This document shows positions 1,011 to 33,110 of a DNA stretch of 64,000 bases, one piece after another. The stretch covers positions 29,574,001 to 29,638,000 of the forward strand of contig CM060734.1 of NCBI GenBank assembly GCA_030704615.1, given 5' to 3'. This DNA comes from Takakia lepidozioides. Lineage: Eukaryota > Plantae > Bryophyta. The notes under the pieces were generated by a model that was not told where the DNA came from, searched no databases, and worked only from the letters and a program-made list of their open reading frames with translations. A program made the translations under genes and the position numbers. Each line of letters starts with the position of its first letter. Position 1 is the stretch's first letter.

Positions 1011-1331
1011 ACTGCTGTTTGTCTCCTTTATCTGCAGGGTTCATGAGATGCACCATTTTGAACTTTTTGCACACCCAAACCTCAAACCCAGTCATTATTG
1101 GAAGCTAAAGTAAAGTGTAGAAAGAAATAAAGAACTTAGGTGTAGATGTGTACCTTATATCTTAGGCTCTAACGGGAGGACGGTGGGGGCTGCCTGCACA
1201 TGAGTGATAGGCCTTGATGCAGCCATCCTCTTGGAAAAAGAGACCTCTTTAGACTTAGTATGTGGACTGCATAGCATGTGGACTGTAGGTGACCTCCAAG
1301 TCAGCCTTAGTCTTTACTTAAGTAAACCAGT

Positions 1332-1416
1332 TGTCGTGCACCTAAGCATCCTGCCACAACATACATCGCTGTCCACCATACATTCTAAGCACACAATCCT
1401 AGAAAGCTATGCCACA
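1332..1416 (-). repeat. LTR segment Y, outer copy (85 bp)
   Basis: Direct repeat of 1786-1870, 4 mismatches in 85 bp by eye. Confidence 0.9.
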
Positions 1417-1418
1417 AT

Positions 1419-1783
1419 AGATAATGAAAGTGAACACAATAGAAACACTTCACTCTTGAATCCACTCAATCACATAAACTAAGTCAAGCCAAGGGCACCC
1501 TTGCTAAGGGAATCCACCCTACAAAGCCCTCAACACACCCCTTCTCAATACCTAGAGCTATGGAGGTGAGAGATGCTCATGGAGGCTCAACTACAAGAAG
1601 ATGAGCCCTCCTCAACACTCACAAGGGGAAAACCCATCCCCATGTGCCAAGTGAGGTTTGACACCTAACTTGGCATGTGAGACCAAATGAAGTCCCAACA
1701 CACAAAATACAAATATAAATATCCAAAATGTCCTAGTTACTAGAAGTAGGTAATTCTAGTTAACCATGACTAAAACCATGACA
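1419..1783 (-). repeat. LTR segment X, inner copy (~365 bp)
   Basis: Direct repeat of 9502-9865 with about a dozen differences; ends ...AAAACCATGACA on the + strand. Confidence 0.9.
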
Positions 1784-1792
1784 GCTGTCATG
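1777..1792. other. Palindromic Y/X junction CATGACA-GC-TGTCATG (putative intact attachment site)
   Basis: Perfect 16-bp palindrome joining the sequences that form the element's right end (..CATGACA) and left end (TGTCRTG..), separated by GC. Confidence 0.8.
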
Positions 1793-1870
1793 CACCTAAG
1801 CATCGTGCCACAACATACATCGCTATCCACCATACATTCTAAGCACACAATCCTAGAGAGCTATGCCACA
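1786..1870 (-). repeat. LTR segment Y, inner copy (85 bp)
   Basis: On the minus strand it starts TGTGGCATAG, immediately after the PPT. Confidence 0.9.
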
Positions 1871-1881
1871 ATCGCCCCCCT
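1871..1881 (-). promoter_or_regulatory. Polypurine tract AGGGGGGCG-AT
   Basis: Purine run followed by AT and then TGTG; the same sequence occurs in copy 2 at 28933-28943. Confidence 0.75.
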
Positions 1882-2189
1882 AGCTGATGTTTAGGTCCTT
1901 CTAACACCGGATAGCTGACAAGTATCCATCTCAATAAGATTATCGCTTGGTCTTCAATCGCACATCTCCCAATTTTCTAAAGTATATGGATCAAGAGGCC
2001 GGGTGCAACGAGAGCCCCATCGTTAGTCGCCTGTTTGCAATCCATGATCTTCAATTGAGTATCCATGGCGTTGAGCTCCCACCGGCTAGACCTTGGATCA
2101 CTTGTCAAATACACCATTGGCGTCCACTACCTATGGCCAAGGCATCGTGGTCACAACCAGTCCCCTCCCACTTGAACCTCTTGGCTCGT

Positions 2190-2720
2190 GTAGGAACCGC
2201 CATTGGTACAAGCAATCCTTCCCATGTTGGTCAATCCCCCAGAATGTCGTCTTTTGCTTGTCAGCCTCTTTGATTGGCAACCGGTGGTAACCGAGTCGCA
2301 AGTCCAATGTACTAAACACCTTTGCATGCCCAATAGCATCAAAGATTTCTTCTGGAGTTGGCATGGCATATCTATCGGACTTAGTCGGACGGTTCACAGG
2401 ACGATAGTCCCCACACATCCTTCTTTCTATCCAATTGCCATAGATATCCTTCTTAGCTGGCATCACCGTTGCCGAGGCATACTCCCCGCCTGACAATTCT
2501 ACCAATCCAGCTTCGAACAACTTCATAGTCTGTGACTGGATCAAAGACCTCTCCATGTCACTATACCTATAGGGCCTTCGAAAAATTGGCGTATCACTTG
2601 CCAAATCAATACGAATCTCTTGGCCCTTCAAACTCCCCAAATCCTTCAAACTGAAGGCAAAACAATTTCTATAAGCCCTTAGAAATTGCTGGATCTTTCG
2701 ACTCTCTCCTCCGGTGACTC
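2190..2720 (-). pseudogene. Ty3/gypsy reverse transcriptase, N-terminal half (truncated before YxDD)
   Basis: PIFRRPYRYS...RMCGDYRPVN...DRYAMPTPEEIFDAIGHAKVFSTLDLRLGYHRL...KTTFW...LYQWRFL, then an abrupt join to pre-integrase sequence. Confidence 0.93.
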
Positions 2721-3174
2721 TAGGTCCAACATCTGGTTCCCAGTTGTCCTCAGTGATTGCAACCTTGGGTACACCAGGCTTGGCGGTAGGAGACGCATCC
2801 TTTGGTTGCTAGATAGCAATCTCTTGGGCCTTATCCGTCCACCCTGACCGTGGCGTAGCCTCCATTTGCTCCGCCATAGCTACATTGAGAACATCATCTG
2901 GGGAAGAAACATTCTCAACCTCTTCAAAAACATTGGCCACCTTGGCCTCCAACTGATCCTCAGTGTATGGCTCTCCCCACTCCTCATATTGCTGCTTGAG
3001 AGATCCAATGACTCTCTCTTTCCACATCTCATCCCACATCTGCCATGGGTGTTTGCACCCCATGATCTTGTGCCCCCACTCACTGCCTCAACCATCCCGG
3101 TTGGCAGAGGGGATACAATATCAAATGGGAGTGCAGAAGTAGCCACCACTGTTTGCAACCTCCGTTGCTCAGCC

Positions 3175-4129
3175 ATGCACAAGCTAATGATCCATGTCAA
3201 GCAATTTAGATCCATTGCTTGATCCAACACATGTCGGCGTGATGCCTCTGACAGAGCTGGCACAACTGTAGTGCCCGTGGCAAATTCCTTTGCCCGCTCT
3301 CGCTCATCTGCATTGGGCTCCACCAATTGCTGTAGCACACTGTCTCAAATCAACCCAGGACCATTGTCTCGAAAAGCATGAGACAAGGGAAAGCTCATGA
3401 GCGTAGGCAAGGTCGCACGTGGCTGCCCCACTCAATTGACCACTGCTAGAGGTGGACGGTCATCATGTCGCACCCTCTGTGGTTGCCTCCCTTGGTCCAA
3501 AATGCCTCAACCGTGAGATTGGGTGGTCGTTGAATAGAATCGTATACTCTCTTGAGCAGCTTTGGTGGTGCAAGATTGGTCCACCACAATCGAGGTCAAT
3601 GCGCGCGTGATCCCACCGCTGCTGCATCCAATAGCACCGCCGATCCAATCCAAGACCGTACCTGATGCACACTGGCCATAACCCTGGCCCGAGAGTTCCC
3701 TATAAGAGGAACATTCTCCAAGATATAGGCTAGAGGTTGCACTTGCCTTGTCTGCAAGTCACGCAACACTCTCAACATCTCCCAAAACAAATGCGATCGT
3801 GCATCATGCAAGCCATTCCCATGACCTGCGGAAGAATGTCCTTGGCAAGGCCATCCGACTATCACCAAGTCAATGGCACCATGCCGGCCCAAATCATCCG
3901 CCCCCAGCATGGTAATGTCTGCTGGCAAGGCCTTTTGGTACCCTTGAATTGCTGAGAGATGCAACAACTCAGGATACTGGTGTGTGAGCAAGACAACGTG
4001 GCGAATAGAAATACGCCAAGCTATCTCATCCTTCTCCACATACAAGTACTTTCGTACTTTAATCCCAGCTTGCAACACTCCTGCAAGCCCAGTGCTCATG
4101 CCTCTAAACAGGTCTAGCAAACAAATCCC
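3175..4129 (-). pseudogene. C5 cytosine DNA methyltransferase domain (DNMT3-like layout) inside the retroelement polyprotein
   Basis: Motif I LDLFRGMSTG, II YVEKD, III DIT, IV GWPCQGHS, V DARSHLF, VI ILENV, VIII AH*PRLWWTNL (TGA at the expected Arg), IX/X ERERAKEF...SRRHVLDQAMDLNCLTWII. Confidence 0.92.
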
Positions 4130-4519
4130 TGAGTCAGGTGGTTGCCAGGTAATGGGCACTGTGTCCAAATGAGCTAACTGAGGAGGTCCAGGTGATGTCA
4201 CTGAACTCCCCTCACTTACCAATGGATAGGCCTCCTGCCATGCTTGGTGCACACACTCGCCTGCTACTCGATGCAAATTCCCAACTGTACCCCACAGTGG
4301 AATATGAACAGGCACATGAGGAAGCAAATCAGCCTTGTATGCCAATTGTTTGTCCTCATCAGGTGGTGGCCTATCATCTGCATGACTATTGCCCTCCAAG
4401 AGCTCACCACCCCAAGCCACCACCCCTGAGAATGCAGCCAATGTGGGCATCATGTTCCTATGATCCACCGCTACATTCCCAATAAACCGCACTGGGAGCA
4501 GTGCACGTCGACCATCCCC

Positions 4520-4900
4520 TGACTGTCATTCCGGCCTGTAGGATGTCGTTTCCTCCCAAAAGTCCAAAGTAAAGCCTATCGGGTATAACACAACCCCACC
4601 AATAACTTATAAGCACATCATAAGACATCGCGTCTGTAACAATGGCTTTAGCTCTCATGACAGAGCCATCTGTAGGATAATCTGGCTGCAATCGAATAAA
4701 GAGCTCATGGCGTGTAATCCCTCGTGCCTTCTCTGAACCGCCCAAAGATGTTTGAATTTGGAAAGGGCAAGGCTCCAAATCCGCCTCTGTAAGGCCCAAG
4801 CCTGCAATTGCTGCTCTCCCCAACATCAATGGATGTGCTCCCGTGTCCAACAAGACCCGTAGTGGCCTATACCTCCTCCCGGCTGGGCTACCCAACTGAA
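4520..4900 (-). pseudogene. Retroviral-type aspartic protease
   Basis: RVLLDTGAHPLMLG (DTG at ~4840-4848) ... YDVL; after a small indel the frame runs on into the DNMT ORF. Confidence 0.85.
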
Positions 4901-5399
4901 ACACACCATCCTGATTGTCCACCAAGACTACCCCAAGAGTCACCATACTATGCTCAATGGCTGGTCTAGCTGGCAACTCCTGCAACCTTGCAGCTGCCGC
5001 TTGCCATGGCGCAGTTGTGGCTGTCTTCATCCTTGAATCCAGGGCATCCATGCACTGCACCTGATCCGCTATCCCCGCAGATAGTGCCGATGCACCACCA
5101 CTCTCACAGTGTGTAGCTGCCAATCTAAACACTGCAGCTAGCCGCATCCTCGGCATTGCAATTGTTATGGCAGAAAACAATGGAGCTTGGCAAATTGCCG
5201 TAGCCGCCCCCAACAATGTACTGGCTACACCTTGCTTTGCAGTACCACCCATTGGCATTTCCCGAGCCATACCAACTCTCCCCAATGACATTCGTGGCTC
5301 TACCTCTAATACACTTGGGCGAGCGGGTGCCATCGATGGCATAGTTGGTACTGTCTCAGCCAATGTGAAAGACTATAGAAGCCTTGTCTGCCGACTTGC

Positions 5400-7037
5400 T
5401 TCCCCTCTTTGTGGATCAAAATCCACATTCGCTCCTCTTGGCTTAGGAGCACGTGTTGCTGCTCAAGTGATTGCAGCTGCAGAGTCCACATGCAATGGTC
5501 CTACAAGTGCGGCTCCACACATGAAGCCCATACCAATCTGGTCTTCCCTAGGCATAGGAGGTTGTGCAGGTGGGGCTTGAACCTCAGGCCTTGGAGCTAG
5601 CGCAACATGAGTAGTGGCCATGGTAGCAAGACGTTGCTCTAGCTGGGCAAGCCTATCCACCATGCCGTGGTCATGACCTTGTCCCTGACCCTGTGCTCTT
5701 TGGTTTTGGTTACGACCTCCACCACGACCTCCACCATGACCTCTGCCTCCTCTACCTCTCTGGAATACATTGCCTCGTCATCGGCCACCATTGTTTCCTT
5801 GGAACTGGCCTGGCCGTAGCTCAGGATGCAAGTCATAACAATGGGTCTCTTCATGCCCATACTTGCCACAATGCCTACACTGTGGTTGTGTAGGCTGTGC
5901 CTGTGCCGGCCCTTTACCTCTCTCCGAGCAATCTCTCTTAACATGGGGTCCTCCATAATCCCAACATGTCACTCCCGACTGTTGTTGGCCTGAGAATGAA
6001 GGAAGTGACCTCTACAATTGAGATCCTCTCTGTCCTTCCCTGGGCTTCACCTGAGCCCCTTTGTTGCCTTGAGCACGTTGGGGTAGTGGTTGTTGTTGGC
6101 TAGGAGCCCCACTTCGTTGTGTCTCCTTACCAAACCCCACCATGACCACTCGTTCCTCCACCATATTGAGCTCTATCCGCTCTGCCAGCAATAACACGTT
6201 TGCTAAGGTGGGTTGGGCCACCTGTAGGAGAGTTGCATCCCGCACCCTTCTCCTCAGCTCCTTGTCCAATATCCCATACCAAAATTGGACTGCTTGAGCT
6301 TCCGTAACCCCTTGGGTTACATTTATCAATCGCCTCATGCGTGTGTTCCCTCAAACTCTCGGTAGGCTTTCGTTGGAACTCTTGCAAGCTCCGCAATTTC
6401 TCCGTCCTTATCCCCTAGTAGTTTCTCCTTAACTCCTCGAAGAACTCCACAACTGGGTTAAAGGCAGGCACATGTGTTGGTGCTGCAGCATGAGCTTGGG
6501 TGGACTTCCCAGCTCCTGTTCCACTTGACATCCCACTGCTGCTTGCAGAAGCTGCCGGTGTCACCACTGCCCTTGTGCCTCTAGTGATGGAGACATAGTC
6601 AGGTGACCAATACACTCGTCATTCCTCAATCTCCACCTCATGTCCCCACCTAAACTCATGGTAGTCATCCATGGGCGGCCCCTCAAGGTGCTGAAACAGT
6701 CCCTTCCACGCCATAAAAGGCGTAAACAGTTGTGGATTGTGCATCTGCTGCAAATCACACCAACTATCAAACTCATGTTTGAAATCATCAAGCTCGATGG
6801 TGCCCACAGCTCCAGAGTACCGACATGGCCCCTTGGTAGCTCCATACATTTCCTCCATCGTATCCCACAACAATGGCACGGAAATGGCACCCTCGGCGAG
6901 AATCCTCCTAACTCTGAGTCTGAACCTTCCTCAGAAGACACTGAAGGTGAAGGTGGCATAAACCGTACACCTCGTCTTGTATACCCACTAGTATCGCTGG
7001 TGCTCGTACCGGCACTCTCCTCTGCAACTGGTGGCAC
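5400..7037 (-). pseudogene. Gag with two zinc knuckles (frameshifted)
   Basis: YSGAVGTIELDDF..., LQEFQRKPTESLRE, knuckles CWDYGGPHVKRDC and CRHCGKYGHEETHC; collinear with the gag of copy 2. Confidence 0.85.
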
Positions 7038-7779
7038 CTCCGTGATGAAAACTCACAACCACACATGTTGTAAACCTGTCTCTAATCCCCATTTCCACAA
7101 GGTAACCGGGTAGAGAACATGTTGCGGCTTATGGCTTAGATTACTAGGTTCGTAAATAAACCTGCACTTGTATCCACCGCAAGCACTCCTATGGTCTACT
7201 GGTCATCAACCCAGCCTCACCATAAGAGAAACAATGATGGTCTGACTGGTCATCACCCCAGCCTCACCACCGACAGCACGCTCTAGGATTGACCGGTGAT
7301 CAAATCCGGACCAACCTCCTATGAAAACAAGCGCCCACACAAAGCTAACATGACGCACAGTCAAGCATGCAGGTGTGGAGGAGATCCAAACACAAGAAAA
7401 TCAAGACAACAACTCCCCCACACCAAAAACACTCCACAGTGTCGCTCCTGCAATGATAACCCAGCCCCAACCCGGACTGACTCTTGCCTCCACCTACGGA
7501 AAGGTTTTGGCCTACAGAGAGGGTGAAAGACTACAAGGAAGAGAGACTAAAGCAATTCCTAATCCCAGCATGCTCTCATCCCACTACCCTATCTCCACAC
7601 TCTCTTGCTAGAACAATAGACAAAACTACCTTTCAAGGGTCTCTCAAATAACTCTCCAGGAGCCCTCAAGAATATGTTTTTCAAACAATCTCACTAAGGC
7701 TCCCAATCCTTGCACAATGGGACTCCAAAACAGTACACCAAGGCCCCAAGAGCCTGCCAAAACTTAGCCCTCGAGGACC

Positions 7780-8090
7780 CCAAATAGTCCCTCACACAAG
7801 TCGCCAAGACTCCTCAAGCTCGCCAAATATTGGCCTCTAAGGATCCCAAATAATCCTCCAAAGAACTTTAAATGGTCCTCCAAATGATCCTCCAAGGACC
7901 CCAAACAGTCTTCCAAGGACTCCCAATGGTCCTCCAAATAGTCCTCCAAGGACCCCATATAGTCCTCCAAGGACTCCCAATGGTCCTCCAAACAGTCCTC
8001 CAATCTAAGGACTCTTCCTATGTCACCACGTTCCCAATGTGTTCCCAATGCGTTCCCAAATTCCCAATGGGTTCCCAAAGTTCCCTACGA
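7780..8090. repeat. Tandem repeat array in the 5' leader of copy 1 (CCTCCAAGGACTCCCAATGGT-like units)
   Basis: Repeated units are visible; ORFs 7764..8078 and 7872..8201 are periodic translations of them. Confidence 0.8.
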
Positions 8091-9487
8091 ATATTCCTGA
8101 AAATATGCCATAGTATTCCCCCAATATTCCCCTGGGCCTATACGTATTTCCCTTGTATTCCCCTTGTATTCTCCGTAGGAATAGCCATTTCCCCCTCATA
8201 GAGTAGTTCAGTTCCTCCTAAGGTTTAGCCATTTCCCCCTAAGCTTTAGCCACTTCCCCCTCTATTTCCTTGAGGTTTAGCCTTACCAAGCTAGGGTTTG
8301 TGCTCCTTGGGGCTCTATGCTTAATCCCCTCAAACATCCATGAATTCTATGGGGTACCAAGACAAATTCCCTTGATCTTCTTCACCTTAAGCTACTCAAG
8401 TTTGTCTCTAACTCAACTAGCAATGCATTGGCCACACAACAAGCTCAATTTCTCATTAGAACTCAAAATCAAGCTTGTATCTCCTTTGGCAAGCCACCAA
8501 GCCTTGTCTCCTCTCAAGCCTTGGTCATTCAAGCTCCCTTCACTTGCTAGCTCAAGAGCCACTCCTCTCAAGCTTGAAATTGAAAAGCTCAAGCCAAAAG
8601 CATGCTTCACACATGCATCACCTCATACACAAGGGAATCAACTTGCTCCCTTCACCTTCTAGCTCTCCTCAAGCTTGAAGTTGGAAGCCACACTTGGGAA
8701 GCATGCTCCACATAAGCATCACTTGTTTGATCAACCATCCACCACAAAACTTAAGCCAAAAGGGAATGAATACATGAGCTTCACCTTCCCCTTCCTTGTC
8801 TTGTCACATGATAATGTATGGTTGAAGTTGTTATGCATGCCTTGAGCCACAATTTTTTTTCTTCATGAAAACCACTTCCAATGATCTCCCATATGTGCTC
8901 CAAGCTCTTCAATGCTCTAGGCTTGGTTTCACATCATCATGGATAGAATTTTCACCCATATGCTTTCCTTCAAACCTCTTGAGCTTCCTAATGCTCTCCA
9001 AGTGCTTGCCCTTGTTGTTTTCAAGCCCAAGCCTACAACATCCATAATTGAGCTTGCTTAACCCTAGATTGATAGTGAAATGAGCACTAACAATCCTTTA
9101 GTTGCTCTCCACATGCCATGGCATACACCATTGACTCCATAATGCATTGAAAAGATTCTCAAACCCTAGAATCCATGCTTCCACACACACAAGACTTCCC
9201 TCTTGCAATCCTTGCAAATCTTGTGGCAACAAGCTCCTTCTTGAGCTCTCCAACACCTTGATGTAACACCACAAATACCTTTCCTTGCAACCCTTGTGAT
9301 CTATAAGAGCTCCATCTTTGAGCTCTCCACCTCCTTAGGGCAAAGCAATATCTCTCAAAGCCCTAACACCACAAAGATATTCTTTTGCAATATATGCAAC
9401 ACCTTGCAACACAAGAGCTATCTTCCCAAGCTTTTCAACACACAATTGCTAAACTAATCCTTACACTCCGCACTCACAAGCATAAGG

Positions 9488-9501
9488 TCATCTTCTTGTA
9501 G
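9488..9501 (-). promoter_or_regulatory. Non-tRNA primer-binding site of copy 1 (CTACAAGAAGATGA)
   Basis: Abuts the ...TATCA end of segment X and is the exact reverse complement of 9673-9686 inside X. Confidence 0.75.
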
Positions 9502-9865
9502 TGATATGAAAGTGAACACAATAGAAACACTTCACTCTTGAATCCACTCAATCACATAAACTAAGTCAAGTCAAGGGCACCCTTGCTAAGGGAATCCACA
9601 CTACAAAGCCCTCAACACACTTCCTCTCAATACCTAGAGCTATGGAGGTGAGAGATGCTCATGGAGGCTCAACTACAAGAAGATGAGCCCTCCTCAACAC
9701 TCACAAGGGGAAAACCCATCCCCATGTCCCAAGTGAGGTTTGACACCTCACTTGACATGTAAGACCAAATGAAGTCCCAACACACAAAATACAAATATAA
9801 ATATCCAAAATGTTCTAGTTACTAGAAGTAGGTAATTTTAGTTAACCATGACTAAAACCATGACA
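9502..9865 (-). repeat. LTR segment X, outer (5') copy
   Basis: Repeat of 1419-1783; the minus strand starts TGTCATGG and ends TTTCATATCA. Confidence 0.9.
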
Positions 9866-10636
9866 CAGTGCTTGCTTAAAATCATCTGAGATCTCTGCCC
9901 ATTGCAAATATCTAAGCATAACACTTCTCTATGAGGATAATTTGGTTTCATCAAGGCAATGTCAACACAAATACTTCCCTAAAAATCATATGTTTCAAAA
10001 CTGAGACAAATCCAAGTATTCTACCATAGCCCAAATGGGGTGTACTGTCATGTTTTAAAACAAAACAAACATACTATTCAAAAATGAAACCATTCAACTG
10101 GGCTGTAAACTAAGATTGATCCAAGTCAAGATGGGTCTTCGAACTCCTCTGTATTAGATCCAAGGATAGATGGCTGAGTCATGCAATGTGTCCCACTGAC
10201 TAGGAACTATGTATTTGAATGACTACTACCAGAGTGGTATGTAAGTGATTAGGAATGCAACTGGGGAGTACATACCACTCTTCCTGTGATATGTAAGTGA
10301 TTAATCTACCACTAGTGGATTGAGAGAGGAAGCAATTGTGTCTGTTTTCCTACTGTCACAGTCTTACATATTATACCACTAGAAGAGTGGTGTGTAAGTG
10401 ATTCATACATTCCTAATACATTCCCATATAATTCTCATACAACTTGAAGATTCAAGCTTAAAAAAACAGAATAGAATCTCGGAGAATAAGTGCTGGAACA
10501 GAGTCAACAAAATCCAACCATAAAAGTTCTCCTTCTACATCTACACTACGTCCCCGCAGGCATGCTAAGAACACTGAACTATTTTCCTGCCTTTTCCTCA
10601 CTGCTAGCAATGTCTATGCCTGTACAAACCACACTT

Positions 10637-12774: not shown

Positions 12775-15700
12775 ATGTCACTGAGCACTACACAGCTTGT
12801 TTGTATATTACATATGAAGTTGCTAGGTTGGGATTCCCAAGTCATATTCTTTGATTATAACATTTTTATTTACCCAGCTGGGGTACTTTCACTTCTGGCT
12901 AACACCCAGAGCAATATCCTCACACTACCTCATACCTCAACACTACTCACACTTTCCGTTACTCATACTCCAATACTATTCTCAATCAAATCTTACATTC
13001 ATTGTACTTTAGTACTACTCTCCTACAAATGGTACACTGCTCATAATTTGATATTGCCCTCAAACAAAATTTCCATTGTTCAGATTCATGTACTGTTTTC
13101 AAACAAATCTTATATTGCTCATAACTTATTCCCTTTTTTATTATTCCTCACGCACACTACTCATGTACAGTATACGAATATATCACCCAAGTATAACTAT
13201 CATATACACAACTCAGATACACTACTCGGACTCGCACAACACCCGAATATACCACCCAAATATACCTCTCATGCACACCACTTAAATACACTACTTGGAC
13301 ATACTATTCATTTGTACTCTTCAGCCTTGATGCTATTCCCAAACACTTTTTCCGCTTCCCATACCACATTAATACTGACAAACAATTCTTTTGCTACTTA
13401 CACCTCGATGTTATGTCTTACAAACAATTCTGATGTAGTCTATACCTCCAAACTACTTACAAATAATTATTACCTTGTTCAATTATCCCCACAACTATCT
13501 CCTCACCCACACAAACCCGCGCAAAAAGTATTCACAAATCTCCCCCGCTCTCACAACCTGATAGCACTTAACCAATATTTCATCCATCCACAGACGCTCT
13601 CATCCATCCCATCATCCACAATCATTCACGCACCCCACCCTTATACCCAAATACTCAATATTCTCATTAAATATCCCGCCAAAAACTTCAAAGTTTTGGT
13701 ATTTCTACCACCCCAACCCAATTTATCCCCAATATATACCCCCCATTCACTCATCAACCACCAGCTCCACAACTCCTCATATTCACCAACCAACCTCCAA
13801 ATCTATGTCCCACTCACGCATTCCCTATCTCCCTATTCACATAATCCAACCATATCCCAATTACCTCCACCTTTCCAAAATACCATACCAAATACATATT
13901 GACCCCCTTACATTTGCCGTTCACCCACATGGAACCCGCCCTCAAAACCTTCTAAAATCCAAGCACTACTACCATCATCCCCCCTCACCCGACACGGCAT
14001 ATAGAATGACATGTATTGACCTCATACTTCTCAGATGTGGAGACATCCACCCTAACCTAGGGCCCTCTTCTATAGATGATTTTGTCAATTACCCACCGGC
14101 CCAAAAGATAGATATGCTTTATATTTCCAAAAAAACACCATCTCCCTCACCTACCCATACTAGCACTTATCTGACCATTTCCCCCCTTCCTCCCCAAAAC
14201 TTTTCCCTCTAACCCCACACATCAGACTCCCCCTCCACATCAAATCTCCACCTTTGGCCTTCCCGCTTGCCATCTCCCAGCTCTTACTCGTGCCACACAC
14301 AGACTCAGGGTTTTCCACACCCAACACATCCTCTTTGCCCTCATCATTACTATCTCCCCGCTACCCGAGACATGTAACATCTACTTTGAATGTCACGCCC
14401 TTTCCCAACTCCGTTCCCTACTCTACACAACCTACATAAACTGCCCTCGCTCCCCAACAATTACCTAGCCCCTCCACACCACCTCTCCGAATTACACTCC
14501 TCGCTTCAACTCCTACAATCCAAACCCGGAGTGCTCCACACAATCCTAACGACCATCTTGCCTCACTTACCTCCCCGACTCAAGACCTGCCAGCCCTCTC
14601 TAATAAATTCCCATATTTATCCAACGACATCATCTCTGCCACCCTAAAGGCAATAACCCCCCTCCCTGGATTCACAACTCCCCCCATCCCCCCCATCCCC
14701 CCAACCCTCCCACCCTCGCCTACTCACTCAAATGCACCTACACCCCCTCCTCCTCCGCCTACAATCTAAATACCAACTCCCTTAGCATCATCACCTGGAA
14801 TGCCGGTTCTATGGCCACTAGTATACAGAGCCTCATAACATTCTCACAGACTCCGTCTCCCCGCACATTATTCTACTACAAGAAACTAAACTACACACCA
14901 ACCGCCCTAATAGCTCATACATAAACAAGCTACTCCCGACATACTACTTCCTGTATGGCAACCCTTTGTCGGCTCCGCAATGTCTTAGGCGGCGCTCGGC
15001 CCCATACAGCCCCACCCGGGGAGGCGTTGCCATTGGCATCCTACGTACCCATCACTCTCCCAGCACCACCACCAAGGTGAACGTCCCCATCCCTCTTCGC
15101 TCTCATCTCCAAATTATCCAACTTTATATGTCTGCTCTTAACCCAATTACCATCATTCACCTATACATGCCCTCCCACACTGATGACCTCCAACTAATCC
15201 CAGATATTATGCTTGCGATTTCCAATACGATTACCCATCCTGATCAACAGCATCACCACTACATTCTCGCTGGTGACTTCAACAGAGATATTGCCCTCCT
15301 TTGACACTCCTATAAAGGCTCCCACCAACCCCCATCCCCTTCCGATCATGATTGGGCCAAGTTCACTCAACAACATCACTTTAGCTACATACCCGCAGAT
15401 CACCACTACTCTAGGCAAGGTGGTCTCCACTACTCCTCCCTCAGCCTCCTTGATGGTTTCTATCTCAAAACCAGCACCGAGATCCCGTCCTATCTCCGCA
15501 GCCACATTCACATTGACAACATTTGTAACTCTCACCACTACCCAATATCGATCTCTCTTCCCTTGTTCCCTTCCACCCCCTCCCTTCTATCCTTAAACCC
15601 CCCCTCCCCAACCCAGGTTCCTATCTCCATTACCCAAACATAACATCACAGCCTTCCAAAACCACTTCCAACCTATTGCCTCTATCCTAACACAAAACCT

Positions 15701-17870
15701 CTCCCATATCCTCTCCAATACGAACCTCTCACAGGAACCCGACAATACCTGGCTCGAAGCAGAGCTCACCCTCTCTTCCATCTTACTACAAATGACCAAA
15801 AGCGTTCTCACCACGTGTGCCGCTCCCCCGGACCTGCCCCAAATCTCCCGCTCTAAACAAAACGGGGGATATCTTACCCGTTCACAAAAGTGGGCCTGGA
15901 CCTCCCACCTAAACACCTATCACACTATCCACAGAGCTCTCACCGTTATTCCTAATTCTTCCACCCTCCCACTACACATAGACTGGCGCTCCGATCCCCG
16001 TATCTCATGCCTAAACTCCCTGTTTGTCTGCAGCCCGATCATGCCCCCTCCCAACGACCCCTCCAATCTTCCTAGCTGGATTGCTGCTCTCTCCAAGCTG
16101 GGGAGAGACGCAAAAAAAGTCGCCTACATTATTACTAAACAAAAAGCTACAGCTAATCACAAAAGATTTATTTCATCCTTTGGCCAATTACTACATGACC
16201 ACCCCAAAAAAGCCCATAAAGCTATTTTCAACCCTGCTCTAAACCCACCCATTGACTACCTCAAACATAGATCCGGCCAACTGCTCACCACCCCTAATGA
16301 CATCCCGATTTGATTCCAAATGCTATACTACAAGCTCTCGACCCTGTACTTCACCTCTTTCTCTTCAAATTTTTTAAACTTTGCTACCAACTCCGCCGGA
16401 TCCCGCACATATGGAAGCATAGCCGCACCATTCTCCTCTTCAAGAAAGGCGACCCTACGGATCTTAGCAATTACAGACCCATTGCTCTTGCTAACACTAT
16501 CTATAAACTATTTACCAACACCCTTACCAAGATGTTGTCCAACTATGGTGAACACCACCGCATTCTTAGCAACCCGCAAGAAGGCTTCCATGCCACACGT
16601 AGCACTACCAGACAAATACAATATGTGTTATCCGCCCTAGAAGACGCCAAACTCACAAACAAGATATATATCTCATATATATCGACTTCAAAAATGCTTT
16701 CGGCTCTTTAGACCACCCGCGTCTACTCGCCATTATGACAGACCTAGGCTACCCATCAGATGCTATACAACTCATCGGTAATATTTACACTAACAGCTCC
16801 ACGGAATATACAGGCTCATATTATGGTTCCACCCCTCCCATCCCAATTCTACGAGGCACTATCCAAGGCGACACCCTTAGTCCTTACCTCATTATCATCT
16901 TCCTTGAACCCTTGCTCAGATGGATTGCACGCGACAAACTTGGATACCAATACAAAACTTCTTCAAACGAAATTTCTGCTACCGCTTACGCGGATGACCT
17001 TGCCATCCTTGCGCACAAACCCCAACACCTCAACCGGCAAGTTGAAAAATTATCACGCTTTAACCAATGGTCTGGAATGGAACTAAGTCTTCATAAATGC
17101 GCCGTCACCGCGGCTACCCACCGCAGTAAGCTTACCAAATCTTCTATTGCGTCACACTGCAAACTATACATCCAATACCAGAACAAACCATTTCCCTTCC
17201 TAGGCCCTGATGAACCCTACACATACTTAGGTATTCAACTTGTCCCCTCGCTCACATGGAACGTACAGAAAATCGCTACACTCACCAAACTAACTAATTG
17301 AAGCTTAGCTCTCCTCAAAGCCCCCATAGCCATCAGGCCCAAACTCTCCCTCATAGAATCCGTCCTAAAACCACAGGTCCAATACTCATTCCATGCGGCT
17401 CCCTTCTCCCTCCCGGACATCATTCAAATCGACAGACAAATCATCCAACTCACTAAGCGCATTTGTGGTCTCCCCACTAGCACTCACAATGCTCTCACTC
17501 AACTCCCCACGGACAGATATGGCATCGGTACTAGTCCCTTAATAATGTCATACTCGCGCACTCTTGGCTCCCAACTACTCGAAGCCCTCAACGACCCGGG
17601 TCGTCTAGGTCTCATCTACCGTGGGCTACTCAAACACCTGGCCTCCAAGTATAATGGACTTCACTCACTACCTTTCCTCCACTCACAGTCTTGTCTCCAT
17701 TCCCCTACCGCCCGCTCCCTATCATACTCCGCCAGTTGAAAACCAGTGTGCAAACCGATCTCCCTGATTACCCCAAATCCATATCTCCCCTAGAACAGGC
17801 TTGGCATACTAGCTCTTTCCTCTCCCAATTCGAACGCAAATTCCCCCGCCAAAAGATACTTATCCTTCAG
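12775..17870 (+). mobile_element. Degenerate non-LTR retrotransposon (APE + RT; RTE-X-like), with internal deletion and 3' truncation
   Basis: APE motifs: IITWNAG (~14785), LQET, YILAGDFN (~15260). RT motifs: WKHSRTILLFKKGDPTDLSNYRPIAL, QEGF, IDFKNAF, RGTIQGDTLSP, AYADD, YTYLG. Many frameshifts. The 5' boundary and clade are uncertain. Confidence 0.85.
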
Positions 17871-21407: not shown

Positions 21408-22826
21408 ATGGATGTGGCAACCTCAGTGGGGCAGACAGAGTTTACACTGGACCTGTACAAAGCGGTGGTGAAGCATCAAGGTGCCAGATCTCGTCCTATT
21501 TGAAGCTTCCGGGAGATGTTATGCACGATTTCTCGTCGCATTTGAGGAACGTTGTGTTGGCTGATGGCAGCGCACAAGGGGGGCCCTTGCTAGCGTCCGC
21601 TAATAAAGTGTGGGTGGAGCAAACGGTACCTCCCAAGCCCCCGTTTATGGAGCTGCTGAAGAGCCGCTATGGATCTGAAGCTGGACAGGCTGATTTCCAA
21701 TCAAAAGTAGGGTGGTTTTCCGGCTCTCTCAATGTTATTCTCCTCTCCCTAATTCCGAATAATGTTATCCCGTAGTCGAATTCAGAGCCTACTGTGAATG
21801 TTCGACGTGGCCTACTACTTTGAGGCTACGGGTTTTCTGCTCATGCTGCCTCGTTTATTAGAGAGATGAAGCAGAAACTGAATTCCACATCGTCTATGAC
21901 ACAATTTGAACTAAATTTGGGGCTTACCCCATGTCAACCCTTGGTGTCCGAATTCGTGGTGGGATGCCAGGGTATCTAGCAGTGTCAATTTTCTATCCAA
22001 CCTACACTAGGAAATATGCAGTCAGTCATCAATTCTCAACATGGGTTTTCATTTACTTTTGTTTTGGTGGTGAGACAGGCTGAGGAAGCCAGAACAAGTA
22101 TAAATACATGGGTCAAGGATGAAACCAGGGGAAAGATTGAGGACCTCCTTCCCCAAGATTCTGTGGACCATACTACGAGGGTTGTATTGGTCAATGATCT
22201 TTACTTCAAGGGAGCTTGGAAGAAACCATTCGAGGAATCAGAGACCAAAGATGGCACATTTTATCTGCTGGATGGAAAGAGCCTAACAGTGCCCATGATG
22301 CGGGCTCAAAAAAAGCAGTTCATTGAAAACTTTGGGTCATTCAAAGCGCTTCGGCTCCGCTAGGATGTCCCAGGTGATGACAAGCGCTTAGATGGACTGA
22401 CCCAACTTGAGCAGAATCTGGATACAAAAGTGCTTGGGTAGGATCTGTCCAATATGAAATCGAAGGTCACAGTAACAAACTTTCAGCTGCCGCGCTTTCA
22501 GATTTCGAGTGGATTTGAAGTGCCTGAGGCCTTGAAAAACCCTGGTCTTGTATTACCCTTTTCGAATGATGCTGATTTTTCAGAGCTGGTGGACTGTCCG
22601 AGTGGACAGCCCCTCTATATTTCCAACATCTTTCATAAGGCATTTGTGGAAGTGAATGAAAAGGGTACTGAGGCTGCCGCTGCAACTGGAGTCTCCATTA
22701 GTCTGCTTTGTTATCAGGAACCTGAAGAATTTGCGGCAGATCATCCATTTCTGTTTGTGATTAAGGAAGAGTTGCCAAAGTCATTCTTTCATTGGCCGTA
22801 TTACTAACCCCATTGGTGCAAGCTAA
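21408..22826 (+). pseudogene. Plant serpin pseudogene (2 exons; intron ~21707-22078)
   Basis: MDVATSVGQTEFTLDLYKAVVK, then deletion/frameshift. GGPLLASANKVW, INTWVKDETRGKI, LYFKGAW, in-frame TAG stops, hinge/RCL EKGTEAAAATGVSISLLC, ADHPFLFVIKE. Confidence 0.9.
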
Positions 22827-27500: not shown

Positions 27501-28744
27501 TTATACCATTGAAACAATAGAACCTATGTAACAGTGTATAGTGGAGAGTGTCTCAAGTGGGTCATCGGTTTGCCACAGTATGTTGCTCTATTTGATTTCA
27601 CATGGTGGAATTGAGTGAAAGGCAATGTAGGTGACTCTGCATATTTTTCCCGTAAAGAATTTGAAGATGCTAGATTGCATAACTCCTATTCTTCAGGCTT
27701 ATCTCTTTTTAGTCCTTTTTGGTGTGTCTTCTCTGCAGCTATCCTCTCTGTGGCTTCCTTTTTCATAGACATATCAAAAAGGTCATTCCGGAAGAGAAAC
27801 TTGGAGCCTATTGACCTTTAAGGAGCCAAATGTATATCTTCAACCTCAATTTTGTACAAGAACCTCCTTTCTATTTCAAGATTATCTTGATATCCTTCAA
27901 GATAGGAAGAAATGCATAGCAAAGACTTTTTTATACCTATAGTCAATTGATGAATATTGTTTGTAAGGTAGAAATGATCATCGCCGACAATCTAAATTCA
28001 GATCTTCAACTTCCATGTTTTAGATTTGTTCTAAACTTGGGACAATCTCAATGATTCTTGACTTTCATACAAGTTTGCTAAAAATAACTTGCGACAAGTA
28101 AAAGTACATGTCGCACAATTTCCAGTAACATGTTAGATTTTTCCTACATTATCAACATGGAGATACTAAAAACACAATTAGTGCGTACATTTGTTACTAA
28201 AAGCATGTTGTATATATGTAGACCTGTTTTAGGGTTTTGGAACATAATTAACGCGATGTAATTTGATATTCTTAGCTGTTGTATAAGAAAATGGCTAATA
28301 TTATGGTAAGTAATTAAACGGTCAATATAGGGCTTCGTTGTACTATCTGAGATTGGTAGGTGAAGCTTCGGCAGTATGACTAAACTAAGATACTCAGATT
28401 CTCAAAAATCACTGAGTGAACATTACATCTCTTCTTCCCAGTTGTCCACAATCCTTGCCAACCCTGTTAGTTTCATATTCCACGTTGAAGGACATGATTA
28501 CATATTACTTAAGATAGTGAAGTATTTGTTTCTATGGTACACTAGATTAGGAGAGGTTTTCATTTCAAATTTGAAAGATGTCTAACTTGCTTACATCTCT
28601 TAATAATTACAAGTAATGTTTCTCCATAGAGTTCTATGAAAGTAATTGACAAAAACAAAAAGATCTTTAAAGACGTGGATGATGCAATTTGAACTCAATA
28701 ATTTACAAAGTACTTTTCCATGGTTGTAATCATGTTAACTAGAT

Positions 28745-28932
28745 TGTCGTGCGCATACATATCGCTACACAACTACATCGCTGTCCAAAACCACACAACA
28801 CATGTGCACACCACACACTAGTATACCACTAGTCCACCACTAGTCCAGCCACTAGTCCAACCACTAGGCTACAACTAGTCAGTCACTAGGCTGCCACTAT
28901 GCTGCCCACTATGGCAGTCACTAGTTCACACA
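28745..28932 (-). repeat. LTR segment Y of copy 2 (188 bp, expanded by CCACTAGT-like repeats)
   Basis: Lies between the PPT (28933-28943) and the TSD; shares TGTCGTGC and ACATCGCTGTCCA with Y of copy 1. Confidence 0.75.
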
Positions 28933-29192
28933 ATCGCCCCCCTAGCTGGTGCTTAGGTCCCTCTAAGTCCAGGTAGCCACAAGATGTGATAGTGACCATA
29001 GCCTCACTAAGTCCTCCACCACTATTCCTACTACACTCAAACTCGATAGATCAAGAGGCCGGGTGCAAGAGTTGCCCCATCGTTAGTCGCCGTCTTGCAA
29101 CCTGTGAACTTGAGCTTGGGATCTCATGTATTGACTCCTATGAGCTTGGCCTCCCATGTCTTGTTAGCTGCCTCCAGTCATGTCCACTACCA

Positions 29193-29345
29193 CTATCCCA
29201 AGCAGTGTGGACACAACCAATCTCCGTCAGGAACCTTCTCAAGAGGTGGTGTCAAGCATCCCATATGCCAACCCCTTGAGCATCGATCACACACCAGCAT
29301 GGTGGCTGCCCCTTTGGCAGACCCACAGAGCATGCTCCTCAAACC
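29193..29345 (-). other. PHD finger (C4HC3) at the integrase C-terminus
   Basis: (S)MLC-GSAKGAATMLV-CDRC-SRGW-HMGC-LTPPLEKVPDGDW-LCPHC, with the conserved Trp; the first Cys is replaced by Ser. Confidence 0.9.
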
Positions 29346-30480
29346 TGCAGGTACCACTGTCAAGTTTGGGTCAACTCTGCCATCGACATTGGGAAGGTGA
29401 CATGGCGCACAATTACGCACATGGTCCTTCCAAGTCTTGCCATCCCGACCCTCTAAGATCAGGACCCCTGAGGGCAACACCTCTCGAACTCTCAGAATAA
29501 CACGCCCTGTAATAACATCCAGAGTCGTAGGAGCAGTCTGCTGCAAATAAACATAGTCACCAGGGCTAAACCTCCGAACCCCAGGACGATATCCTCCACC
29601 ACGTATAGTGGCATACCTCAACGTATCACGGTGCTGTGCAATGCAAGGTTCTCAAAAGCCATGGGCATGACTTTCTTGAACAACTCTGCACGCTGATCAC
29701 ATGCACGTACCCACACGTCCGGATTGTCAAGGTTAAGGACTTGAGTAGTGTCCCTACGAATGGCTGCAGGCAAATCTGGCTCTCGGCCAAAGAGAAGGAA
29801 ATATGGTGAGAAGAGGCAAGTGATGCTTGTTTGCTGAACCTGTAGCCCATGGCTAACCAAGGAACCTGAAGATCCCAATCTCCTAGGTGTCCCTTCTGCA
29901 AGCCATACTTGCGCAAACCCCTCTTCACCGTCTGAACAACTCTCTCTGCTAAGCCATCGGCCTCAGGATGATCCCGAGAAGTGGTGCGGTGGTCTATCAA
30001 GGCTTTATCACACAAAGCCTGAAACTCCCCCAAAAATCTTCTCCCTTGGTCCGTGAGTACCTCAGCTGGAGCACCAAATCGGCTAAGCACACGATCCAAA
30101 GAATGCATACGCAGCCCCTCACTAGCCTTGTCAGGCAATGGAACAACTCAATCCACTTAGAGAAGTGCTCCACCATCACAACACATATCTGTGGTGGCGC
30201 ATAGTCAGTGGCAACGGTCCTGCGAAGTCAAAAGACTCACCTGTAGCCCAATCCCATGATTGGTAAAGGATGCAACGTGGTGTAGGGGCGTTGAATGAAG
30301 CACGCACCCTGTCACACACCATGCACCTAGCCACGAACTGTTGCACCTCTGTATGCATACCACGCCACCAATACTGCCCCTGCAGTAAACTGTGAGTGAG
30401 TCGCACTCCAAAATGCCCCAACTCCTCATGGTGCATGCCGCACTAACCGTGCACGCTGTGTGGGGTGAGGCACAATCCTC
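29346..30480 (-). pseudogene. DDE (rve) integrase with HHCC zinc domain, frameshifted
   Basis: HEELGHFG...YWWRGM...CMVC; DFAGPLP; VEHFSKWIE; FGAPAEVLTDQG; HPEADGLAERVVQTVK; SPYFLLFGREP; FSPGDYVYL. Confidence 0.93.
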
Positions 30481-30824
30481 ACACGACCATCCTCCCACAC
30501 TCGAAGTAGGTGTATCCCCTCCCACTTGAACCTCTTGGCTCGTTGCAGGATCCGATCCTCTCCCTGGCAGTCACAGTGGCTGTCGTGTCTCCCGTGCGGA
30601 GGTAGTCCAACACAGCCGAATCCTCATGTATATCTCTGGCACCACCTGGCTCATCACTAGCCTCAGGGTCCTCAGACACTCCGTCTACAGTCATCCTGTT
30701 GTAGGTCCAACCTGACCTCCCGATGCAAAGATACACAAAAAATGACAGATGCGTGCCATCCCGACACCATTCCTCGTCGTATCTCACCATGCCACCGGCC
30801 TCATGTCGTCATCCTGTTGGCTCA

Positions 30825-30890
30825 GTGCATGGATTGCGCCTCAAATCCATCCGCATCCCTATTGACCAAACTCGGTCGATGACACACCTG
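30825..30890 (-). pseudogene. RNase H C-terminal remnant
   Basis: HRPSLVNRDADG(fs)LRRNP fits the Ty3 RNase H end motif HrxGxxNxxADxLSR. Confidence 0.6.
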
Positions 30891-31354
30891 AACATGTCTC
30901 GTCATGCTCATCCACCGTTTAGCACGAGAGGCAAAGCCATTCCTGCAAGCCTCAGGAACCGCCGTATACGTCGTCTCTCTCTAGTAGTAGACATAGGTCA
31001 AGCAATGTCAAGCTCCCAATTGCCCTTCGTAACTGCAACCTAAGTCCAGCAGACTTAGAGGTAGAGGACGCGTCCCGTGGTTGCTATGCCGCACCTCTTG
31101 AGCAGTACTCCCTGCCTGCTCAGTCAATGACAAGGCCTCATCCTGCCCCATCATCTCATCCTTGAGGACCTCCATCACAGCCGCCTTGGCTTGCCAACTC
31201 CCTCTGAACCTCGACACCTCCCATGTGTGCCATGGATGCCTGCACCCCGTGGTCCTCACATGCTCGCCCCCACTCACTGCCTGTACCGTCTCGGTAGGCA
31301 GGAGAGGACCATTGAGGGAAGTGTACTCCGCACTCTACATTGCTCAGCCAGAGC

Positions 31355-32310
31355 CAAGCTGATAATCCAGGTCAAGCAATTGAGATCCATTGCTTGCCCC
31401 AACACTTGACGACGTGATGCCTCAGAAAGAGACGACACCGCTGTGGTACCAGTGGTAAACCCATTGCCCGCTCACTCGTCAGCATTAGGCTCCACTAACT
31501 GCTGCAACTGAGCATCCCACAGGAGGCCAGTCCACTATCCGGAAAGCATGCGATCTGGGAAGCTGAGCAGTGTAGGTAATGCTGCTCGTGGTTGACCCAC
31601 CTTGTTGACCACTGCCAAAGGCGATGTGGTCATCGTGTCTCACACGCTGAGACTGCTCCCCTCCCATGTGCCAGAATGTTATCCACTGTGAGATTGTGCT
31701 GGCCGCTGCAACCCCATCAAATGCACTCTTGAGCAGCGCGGGTGGCATCAAGTAGTCCACCATAGCCATGGACGATGAGCCCGTGGACCCCACTGTAGCT
31801 GCATCTAGCAACACTGCTGACCCAAGCCACGACCGACTTGATGCACACTGGCCATCCCACCCTGGCTCGAGAATCGCCCATCCACACATTCTCCAAGATG
31901 TATGCGGTGGAGATACAGCTTGATTGAAGCTGCAAGTGGCGCAAAAACCCGCACCATCTCCCAAACAGACCCGACCTCGAGTCTCGCAATCCATTGTCAT
32001 GCCCGGCTGAATGAATGCCCTTGGCAGGGCCAACCTGCCACTATACCAGATCAATGGAGCACAACCGCTCCAAATCCTGCGCCCCCAGCACGACGAAATG
32101 TCTGCTGGCAAGGCCTGCTGATATCCACGATTGCCAGACACCGACAACAACTCAGGGTACCGCTGCACAACTGAGCAACATGGCGAAGTTGAAACGCGTC
32201 GTGCAGTCTCATCCTCTCCACATACAAGTAACGCCAAACTCGTACACCTGCTTGTAACACAGTAGCCAATCCGGTGTGATCCCGCCAAACAAGTCCAGAA
32301 GACAATGCCT
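31355..32310 (-). pseudogene. C5 cytosine DNA methyltransferase domain of copy 2 (many indels)
   Basis: TGLATVLQAGVRVWRYLYV, ALPADI, AGWPCQGHS (~32015-32040), YILENV, GSAVLLDAATVGS, SRRQVLGQAMDLNCLTWIIS. Confidence 0.88.
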
Positions 32311-32689
32311 TCATCATGGATACTGCCACACAATAGGTGTGGTGTCCAATGGAGACAATTGAGGTGGGCCCTGGTGCAATCCCCACACTCTCCTCCTCTC
32401 CTGACGGTACAAAAAGCCTCCACCCGGCTTGTTGACACCCGTCGATCAGCATCTCGCTGCAAATCCTTGCTCGGCCCACAATGGAGTCTGAGCAACCATG
32501 GTAGCAACTCCGCCATACCATACATGTCATCCTACTCTCCCGGAGGGGTACCATCCTCTGAATGAGCATTGCCCTCAAGCAACTTTCTAGGCCAACTCAC
32601 TGCCGCTGTGAATGCTGTGCTAGTGTCGGCATCTTGCTTCGCTGGGCAACCGCAACTCCTCCTATGAACGTCACAGGGAGCTACACACG

Positions 32690-33110
32690 CCGGCCCTCCC
32701 CTGACTGCCATGCAAGCCTATAGGAAGCTGACTCCTCCCAAAAATCAAGGGGAAGCCCATGGGGTACAACACTGCCCCACCAACCAGGACATCGTATGAG
32801 ACTGCGTCTGTCACAATGGCCTTGGCTCGCATCACTGAGCCATCTGTAGGGTGATCCGGCCGTAGTCTTATAGCCAACTCACACCGTGTCATGCCCCGAG
32901 CCTGCTCCGATCCTCCCAGAGACGTCTGTATCTGGAAAGGACAAGGCTCCATATCCGCCTCCGTGAGGCCCAAGCCTGCAATAGCAGCTCTGCCAGCATC
33001 AATGGCTGAGCTCCCGAGTCCAACAAGACCCGTAGTGGCCGGTACCTATTGCCCTTGCCGCGGGTCCACTCAAACAGAAAATGTCATCCTGGTTGTCTAA
33101 CATGACAACT
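32690..33110 (-). pseudogene. Aspartic protease of copy 2
   Basis: VLLDSGAQPL (~33001-33030) ... YDVLVGGAVLYPMGF. Confidence 0.85.

Follow-up and report, generated by a model that had tools for sequence, protein, structure and literature searches.

Why would a retrotransposon carry a cytosine methyltransferase? The question is raised by a window of 64,000 nucleotides (the whole stretch of DNA analyzed here), which holds two broken copies of one element family, both on the minus strand and both with such a domain. An earlier note on this DNA had described a full set of C5-methyltransferase motifs in linear order, and these were indeed found, on the minus strand; the search with the PF00145 profile that the note had proposed gave a match well above the cut-off for the minus-strand open reading frame 4525-3596 (E 1.3e-12; 48.2 bits, the cut-off being 22). 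The domain of copy 1 occupies 3150-4126, with motifs I to X in linear order, broken by stops and a frameshift. In a read-through translation with X at the breaks, motifs I to VIII share one frame, with the Phe of motif I at 4108, the catalytic Cys at 3847 and the Glu of motif VI at 3718. A TGA stop (3598-3596) replaces the first motif VIII Arg, a frameshift lies near 3510, and motifs IX and X follow in the next frame, accompanied by two further stops; motif I also has a Gly to Arg and motif X a Gly to Asp substitution. Judged from these stops, the frameshift and the motif I and X changes, the copy 1 enzyme cannot be active. As the note had stated, the domain continues the reading frame in which the protease region ends, with one stop intervening, and lies upstream of reverse transcriptase (RT). 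Copy 2 has the same domain in the same place (31319-32304, frameshifted), with 72% DNA identity to copy 1 over 916 columns, and the PCQ and ENV signatures of motifs IV and VI are retained as claimed, though in different frames. A direct dN/dS comparison of the two domains (dN 0.62) is unreliable because the frameshifts of copy 2 corrupt the codon map.

The note's view that the enzyme resembles DNMT3 rather than the permuted DRM type gained support from both sequence profiles and fold. DNMT3A is the top PDB match of the copy 1 domain, and a profile built from 29 relatives ranks DNMT3A (85 bits) and DNMT3B (77) above two DRM entries (62 and 48), M.HhaI (44) and DNMT2 (28). Three colinear segments align with DNMT3A, as expected for a linear, non-permuted order unlike that of DRM. 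An AlphaFold model of an unbroken relative, P0003 (pLDDT 93.7), superimposes on DNMT3A with a Z score of 29.2 and an rmsd of 2.5 over 273 residues, against a Z score of 25.7 for the first non-DNMT3 chain. DNMT3A, DNMT3B and DNMT3C are the closest solved relatives by sequence and by predicted fold. The catalytic Cys, the motif VI Glu and both motif VIII Arg residues are invariant across the 29 diverse relatives. Among Pfam families, PF00145 is the sole domain matched in the Marchantia gag-protease-DNMT protein P0007, which has no targeting domain attached.

The copy 1 insertion extends over 1328-9869 and is framed by a 4-bp target-site duplication, ACTG (9869-9866 and 1331-1328); it is internally deleted and dead. 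Its 5' end is formed by a repeat designated A1 (9503-9865), which begins TGTCA and is 96.7% identical to a second repeat, A2 (1420-1783). Behind A1 come a broken gag gene (5850-6849, with the capsid part at 6849-6150 and the zinc-knuckle region below it), a frameshifted aspartic protease (4475-4958; PF13650 at E 0.004, below the cut-off), the DNMT domain, a conserved in-frame TAG (2809-2811) followed by CAA CCA, and the 5' half of RT (2191-2808). Of the remainder of pol (second RT half, RNase H, integrase and PHD finger) a deletion has left no more than a short integrase remnant. Next are a polypurine tract (1873-1881), repeat B1 (1786-1872), repeat A2 and, at the 3' end, repeat B2 (1332-1418), which is 94.5% identical to B1 and ends CGACA; one extra base (1419) separates A2 from B2. 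Copy 2 (28741-38939; target duplication ATCT at 38939-38936 and 28744-28741) is also dead, with many frameshifts, and has a simpler 3' end. It consists of repeat A1 (38620-38935), gag (34295-35029; a weak PF03732 match, E 0.0056), protease (32663-33136), the DNMT domain, the conserved TAG with CAA CCA behind it (31084-31086), a DDE (rve) integrase core (29890-30293; PF00665 at E 2e-4, below the cut-off), an integrase C-terminus with a PHD finger (29196-29471; PF00628, E 6e-11) and, at 28745-28943, a polypurine tract (28943-28935) with a single repeat B (28934-28745). In copy 2, RT and the greater part of RNase H are missing, and neither window copy has a whole RT. Tandem-repeat arrays were also seen in the long 5' untranslated part of both copies, at 35951-37085 in copy 2 (about 1.1 kb) and 7834-8003 in copy 1.

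The complete order in the family is gag, protease, DNMT, stop, RT, RNase H, integrase and PHD finger. Four features relevant to mechanism had escaped the note, namely the split repeats at the ends, the self-priming site, the conserved stop ahead of RT and the integrase-PHD end. This domain order, an RT of Ty3 type (Ty3 is the best match of the RT-RNase H region of the Marchantia relative P0023, at 206 bits), TG...CA ends, a polypurine tract and the 4-bp duplication are those of Ty3/gypsy elements (Metaviridae), but the identical LTR at both ends that belongs to that class is lacking, and every two-ended copy has A on the left and B on the right. We have very little doubt that the element is of Ty3/gypsy type and that its extra domain is a DNMT3-like methyltransferase. 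The split repeats recall the DIRS class, which was rejected: an rve integrase is present in 18 of 20 long relatives as well as in copy 2, and no tyrosine recombinase family was matched in any of the 20. Troyka elements, as described in the accessible text of PMC12440569, have CG...CG ends, a 3-bp duplication and animal hosts, and are excluded by the TG...CA ends and 4-bp duplications found here. No chromodomain was matched in the open reading frames of the window or in the 20 long relatives, 16 of which have a PHD finger in its stead.

The place of the DNMT domain ahead of a stop codon bears on how much enzyme an intact element would make. Of 80 metagenome loci of the family, in which DNMT again follows the protease, 56 were compared in this region. 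An in-frame stop separates DNMT from RT in 54 of them, 51 having CAA-YY directly behind the stop (34 TAG, 17 TAA), as in both window copies, and three having a second stop behind the first; one of the remaining two has Tyr at the stop position and the other could not be framed. A UAG followed by CARYYA is known to permit readthrough (PMC4132726), and the sixth position here is C rather than A in most loci. Marchantia gene models that span the whole frame end 68-76 residues past the DNMT domain, and four relatives carry DNMT and RT in one open frame. Since the frame that starts with gag and protease closes with the DNMT domain, and the stop conserved behind it has surroundings of readthrough type, the enzyme is likely to be made at the level of Gag, and RT and integrase at a fraction of that level. 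In the loci of peat-moss type, re-initiation is possible at an ATG two codons behind the stop, which is missing from the window copies and from locus L038.

Is the domain maintained, or merely carried along? Selection was assessed in 64 non-redundant loci of the 80, excluding C>T and G>A changes and counting a variant as shared when present in at least five loci, a comparison of shared with private variants that is meant to remove decay after insertion. In the DNMT domain the ratio of synonymous to non-synonymous variants was 18:13 for shared variants and 68:228 for singletons (Fisher p 1.3e-4). The shared ratios were 9:0 in RT, 11:1 in RNase H, 7:2 in gag and 10:9 in protease, the last not significant. 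By this measure the DNMT domain is under purifying selection across the family; none of the results that the note had named as contrary was found. Pairwise medians for copy 1 against the 80 loci were dN 0.30 and dS about 2.4 (finite in 60 of 80) for DNMT, dN 0.19 and dS 1.9 for RT, and dN 0.41 and dS 2.0 for protease. Close copies gave dN/dS values of 0.62-0.75 for DNMT versus 0.39-0.57 for RT, a near-neutral decay that is faster in DNMT. Of the 64 loci, 63 retain the catalytic Cys and 61 the Glu of motif VI; only 25 have the full set of six catalytic residues intact, and a full-length, stop-free domain is found in three. Losses of catalytic residues are concentrated in Arg codons and resemble CpG deamination. 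The observed/expected CpG ratio of the copies (0.45-0.55) shows no deeper depletion than that of three host genes (0.50-0.63), and so gives no sign of self-methylation.

An ordinary LTR pair is absent from the window: copy 1 has the form A...PPT-B-GC-A-B and copy 2 the form A...PPT-B. Both are framed by exact 4-bp target duplications at their TGTCA...CGACA ends. Among the ten metagenome loci with both ends, six have an exact 4-bp duplication and two a duplication with one transition; L048 has no matching duplication, and L079 is damaged at its 5' end. The arrangement of B, spacer and A is not peculiar to copy 1. A B-A(-B) terminus was seen in six independent metagenome loci, one of which has lost the B|A joint, and the spacer is GC or its deamination product in all five that retain it; 14 loci have the single-B end (A...B) against the six with A...B-A-B. 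The mirror form, A-B-A...B, was not found: no B lies ahead of any of the 23 5' ends. The two kinds of joint behave differently. The A|B joint varies, being exact in L036, L049 and L079, with one extra base in copy 1 (missing from three contigs in each of runs X1 and X5), 19 nt of filler in L052 and, in L066, 10 nt from the primer-binding site together with another 5 nt; such variation is expected if cDNA ends were joined there. The B|A joint consists of the right end of the element, two bases and the left end, which in copy 1 makes a palindrome at 1777-1792 around the GC spacer (1785-1784) and is the putative integrase cut site. A cut with a 2-nt stagger at this joint would yield CA-3' ends, and CA-3' ends are what retroviral integrases use. 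Two further arrangements were observed in the metagenome. Locus L043 (16600-17400) holds a second, diverged integrase-PHD element with the same layout of tract, B, spacer, A and B in unrelated repeat sequence, and L066 (12670-13570) holds a rearranged copy with an inverted piece of A, primer-site letters at its A|B joint and an exact target duplication, likely an aberrant product of reverse transcription that nonetheless integrated.

The manner of priming gives these repeats a meaning. No primer-binding site of tRNA type lies behind A1; the site of copy 1 (9488-9502, directly behind A1) does not start with the TGG of a tRNA-primed site. Instead it is perfectly complementary over 15 nt to a stretch within A1 (9672-9686), the likely self-primer and predicted RNA 5' end, and that of copy 2 (38607-38619) is complementary over 13 nt to 38785-38773. 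Pairings of at least 10 nt were found in nine of 20 metagenome loci tested (23 have A1), the other 11 falling short of that count; in control comparisons with 200 words per locus the maxima were 7-9 pairs. The primer stretch lies 27-33 nt behind a TATA sequence in five of the nine pairing loci, and primer and site covary across three subfamilies, namely the two window copies and a metagenome subfamily. The primer-binding site is thus likely to be complementary to the element's own 5' RNA, a self-priming layout of Tf1 type. The position of the self-primer defines the LTR made by RT as B+A, so that the integrated form would correspond to end-joined cDNA that was opened again at the B|A site within the 5' LTR. 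Immediately after the primer-binding site, at minus-strand 9440-9487 and 38560-38606, there is by eye an apparent hairpin of 9-10 bp whose stems differ between the copies and whose loop is the same, possibly a priming or packaging signal.

The note had proposed that the domain is a family trait rather than a one-off capture, and this is borne out by both copies, by relatives, by the metagenome loci and by selection. A first protein search returned 39 proteins, the named ones among them being from Marchantia polymorpha, Calypogeia fissa and two Sphagnum species, with up to 71% identity, and a profile search of 1.84 billion representatives returned 407 proteins at E values up to 1e-30. In 258 proteins scanned for domain order, 56 had protease followed by DNMT (named members include Closterium and Mesostigma) and 104 had DNMT behind RNase H (named members include Hariotina, Chromochloris, Haematococcus and Cymbomonas). 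The chlorophyte domains (P0332, P0233, P0325, P0362 and relatives) sit between RNase H and integrase and form one clade with support of 99; this different site implies that the domain either shifted within pol or was acquired twice. A G-patch domain was additionally seen in P0217 and P0284. In a quick tree, copy 1 falls within a 13-member clade with bryophyte sequences (support 100), in which Sphagnum and liverwort rows are nearer each other than to copy 1, a pattern that fits old paralogous lineages or horizontal transfer among bryophytes. The DNMT trees comprise retrotransposon rows, viral rows and one Symbiodinium row. Several Marchantia gene models, P0007, P0008, P0013 and P0022 (Mp4g09160, Mp8g15430, Mp8g17980 and Mp6g11220), are frames of this element family, as are P0012, P0016 and P0040; these Marchantia, Calypogeia and Sphagnum models are named hypothetical protein or DNA methyltransferase. 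On the nucleotide side, copy 1 is matched by 30,004 contigs from run X1, a figure that indicates many related copies and is not a copy number; contigs from two presumed-RNA runs that cover 4005-4715 with about 90% identity do not amount to evidence of expression.

A land-plant context, which the note had suggested would extend the known range, is supported by the rest of the window, where a neighboring WD40 gene groups with a moss. This gene (48291-49922, minus strand) is one long uninterrupted open reading frame whose relatives are named periodic tryptophan protein 1. Its best named relative is from Ceratodon (68%). In a tree of 36 rows, among which hornworts, Sphagnum and Takakia are not represented by name, it branches deepest in the clade holding Ceratodon (support 100/96), a placement that makes an early-branching moss the likely host. 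Another long uninterrupted frame encodes a NAC transcription factor (PF02365; 54671-55942, minus strand). Two degraded LINE-type elements with RVT_1 and zf-RVT matches lie at 14800-17740 (plus), which has a very strong skew of C over G, and 63244-63999 (minus). Three other reading frames we take to resemble a serpin (21980-22807, plus), a ketoacyl-ACP synthase II (43722-45043, plus) and a PPR fragment (52840-53238, minus).

The reading that we favor, with somewhat more confidence than doubt, is that the element-encoded DNMT3-like enzyme methylates the element's own free cDNA, before or during its integration through the internal palindrome. In the proposed cycle, transcription starts within A1. 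The main product of the RNA would be gag-protease-DNMT, so that the enzyme is packaged at Gag level, with RT, RNase H, integrase and PHD finger supplied by readthrough. The first 11-15 nt of the RNA would then prime reverse transcription as in Tf1, and RT would yield a linear cDNA with B+A as its true LTR and with no integrase site at its ends. Once these ends are joined, a cut by the DDE integrase, staggered by 2 nt, in the internal CA-GC-TG palindrome that lies in the 5' LTR would produce the form A...B-A-B. The DNMT would methylate the free DNA, most likely at CG, which would enter the genome already marked, and the PHD finger, which would read histone marks, probably directs where insertion occurs. 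Integrase cleavage of a palindromic two-LTR junction has precedent (PMC1180852). A symmetric opening of a two-LTR circle predicts the mirror form A-B-A...B, absent from all 23 5' ends, and the model therefore needs a bias that it does not explain. In its boldest version, which is conjecture, methylation of the CG in the palindrome selects which of the two sites is cut.

The same enzyme could instead act after integration or in trans, methylating the new insertion, its flanks or host chromatin and so damping transposition or competitors. A domain that ends the gag frame would be abundant and could be freed by the protease, the moss host DNMT3 carries out de novo CG and CHH methylation (PMC6453930), and self-limitation is among the options raised in PMC5890265; the absence of any attached targeting domain in P0007, and a place in a particle-forming polyprotein that seems better suited to a cDNA substrate, make this alternative unlikely. 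Still less probable is a role of the domain in binding nucleic acids or methylating RNA rather than DNA. The Klebsormidium domain showed no DNA activity in yeast, a result that its authors called inconclusive (PMC5890265), and the constraint on DNMT is weaker than that on RT and RNase H, but the invariance of the Cys, the motif VI Glu and both motif VIII Arg residues in 29 relatives, together with the far lower score of DNMT2-type RNA methylases (28 versus 85 bits), argues for a DNA methyltransferase. About equally improbable is a phage or bacterial origin, in which the enzyme would merely resemble DNMT3: PHROG phrog_116 scores 72-87 bits, and the Atlas ties two viral clusters with one streptophyte cluster at 0.96 without separating them, but the best phage records have only 24-31% identity, the 24 retrotransposon domains split from the 14 best IMG/VR methylases with support of 100, the modeled fold is nearer DNMT3A than any prokaryotic chain, and the published tree groups the Klebsormidium domain with Dnmt3 (PMC5890265). 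Searches of IMG/VR and of phages returned distant methylases only, with no RT or integrase nearby. There is virtually no chance of a one-off capture of a host gene fragment in neutral decay. Both window copies are broken and close copies decay near-neutrally, as that reading would have it, but it is refuted by the recurrence of the domain in the same place in both copies and after the protease in the metagenome loci, by the protease-DNMT order in 56 of 258 proteins, by the selection on shared variants, and by the absence of introns and host accessory domains.

The split repeats could also have arisen with no circle at all, either because the integrase cuts the internal sites of both LTRs on linear cDNA, which would yield A...B, or because A-B-A-B is rebuilt on an RNA template, as proposed for DIRS-like elements, with odd A|B joints simply inherited. 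This origin is somewhat unlikely, and the observations that favor it are that A...B is the commonest 3' end (14 versus 6) and that the mirror form is lacking. An element of the form A...B, lacking a 3' copy of its RNA 5' end, would seem unable to make the first strand jump; A...B ends may also stem from recombination of B1 with B2 or from collapse in short-read assembly, and the filler and primer-site remnants at the A|B joint resemble joined ends. The integration of end-joined cDNA through the internal palindrome remains our preferred account of the repeats.

The published paper cited in the note does exist, and describes a Gypsy element with a Dnmt3 in Klebsormidium (de Mendoza et al. 2018, PMC5890265). 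This element, KnitGypsy-Dnmt3 of K. nitens, has DIRS-like repeats, A1 and A2 around the open reading frames and two B repeats around A2, so that its layout of A1...B1-A2-B2 is that of copy 1 and the six loci (PMC5890265). It shares with the moss element Gypsy domains and a non-permuted, intronless Dnmt3-like domain under purifying selection (PMC5890265), and the moss element, which shows all of these in its sequence, is likely to belong to the same kind. The two differ in host, an alga rather than a land plant, and in the place of DNMT, which the paper puts in the Pol ORF and which in the moss element ends the gag-protease frame with a stop before RT (PMC5890265). Self-priming, 4-bp duplications, a palindromic internal site and a PHD finger, all features of the moss element, are unmentioned for KnitGypsy-Dnmt3 in the accessible text of PMC5890265, which calls the domain an acquisition of the K. 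nitens lineage; the relatives found here span liverworts, mosses, Closterium, Mesostigma and chlorophytes. That survey covered seven embryophytes, with no liverwort and no Sphagnum, as far as its accessible parts indicate (PMC5890265), and no named Klebsormidium member was among the relatives returned by our protein and profile searches. SymbioDIRS-Dnmt3 of Symbiodinium, whose enzyme methylates CG de novo in yeast, likewise has a Dnmt3 domain in a split-repeat retrotransposon, but with a DIRS recombinase ORF instead of a DDE integrase, a dinoflagellate host and an independent origin (PMC5890265). The host proteins PpDNMT3a/b have a non-permuted DNMT3 catalytic domain in bryophytes with a C-terminal DUF3444 (PMC6453930), whereas the domain of the moss element lacks DUF3444 and lies within a gag polyprotein.

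Other systems resemble single parts of the cycle. Circle transposition of the IS3/IS30 type uses a DDE enzyme that cuts the palindrome of two joined ends. The foamy-virus integrase likewise cuts a palindrome of joined ends to give processed ends (PMC1180852), but its palindrome arises where the linear ends meet, while in the moss element it is a fixed site within the LTR and the end joint lies elsewhere. Tf1/Sushi elements and the moss Tcn1 clade are Ty3/gypsy elements with no tRNA primer site and with predicted self-priming, but they are chromovirus LTR elements for which the accessible text mentions no methyltransferase or PHD finger, in contrast to the PHD finger and split repeats of the moss element (PMC6317226). 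EpiLTRs of Cymbomonas and Euglena are LTR retrotransposons with a cytosine methyltransferase, one of them green-algal; their DNMT is sister to DNMT4, lies at the 3' end of pol in Cymbomonas and is accompanied by DAM and a chromodomain, and the preprint calls them distinct from streptophyte Gypsy-DNMT3 elements (bioRxiv 10.64898/2026.05.21.726589). A Chlamydomonas v6 paper describes a PHD-bearing Gypsy-7a with two LTRs, and no methyltransferase is in its domain list in the portion available. PMC12344493, which cites the 2018 paper, and the EpiLTR preprint speak of 'streptophytes' in their accessible text, and their supplements may hold bryophyte sequences. The accessible parts of a Marchantia met1 study (10.1101/363937) and a fern genome paper (PMC9477723) do not mention such elements. 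Our literature search, to which subscription journals and Repbase reports contributed little, turned up neither a description of members from land plants or chlorophytes nor one of split repeats combined with a DDE integrase. How new these features are may also depend on REM1 of Chlamydomonas, which we take to be a gypsy element that has a PHD finger and unusual repeats.

That the family occurs in chlorophytes, in streptophyte algae and in bryophytes speaks against a capture confined to Klebsormidium. We tentatively suggest, at less than even confidence, a lineage of the age of green plants, surviving in mosses and liverworts, that joins three features not known to have been described together: tRNA-free self-priming, insertion of end-joined cDNA by a DDE integrase through an LTR palindrome, and a Gag-level DNMT3 that methylates that DNA. 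The end structure suggests that an integrase of retroviral type routinely inserts joined or circular cDNA, a path usually held to be a dead end. Elements with such ends will be missed by tools that search for LTR pairs, and element frames that are misnamed as host genes can inflate counts of host methyltransferases. Cytosine methylation is the weapon of the host against transposons, and here it is carried by a transposon of land plants. The presence of the family in Marchantia polymorpha, for which mutants and methylomes are at hand, makes it possible to test the question asked in the 2018 paper, namely of what use the enzyme is to the element.
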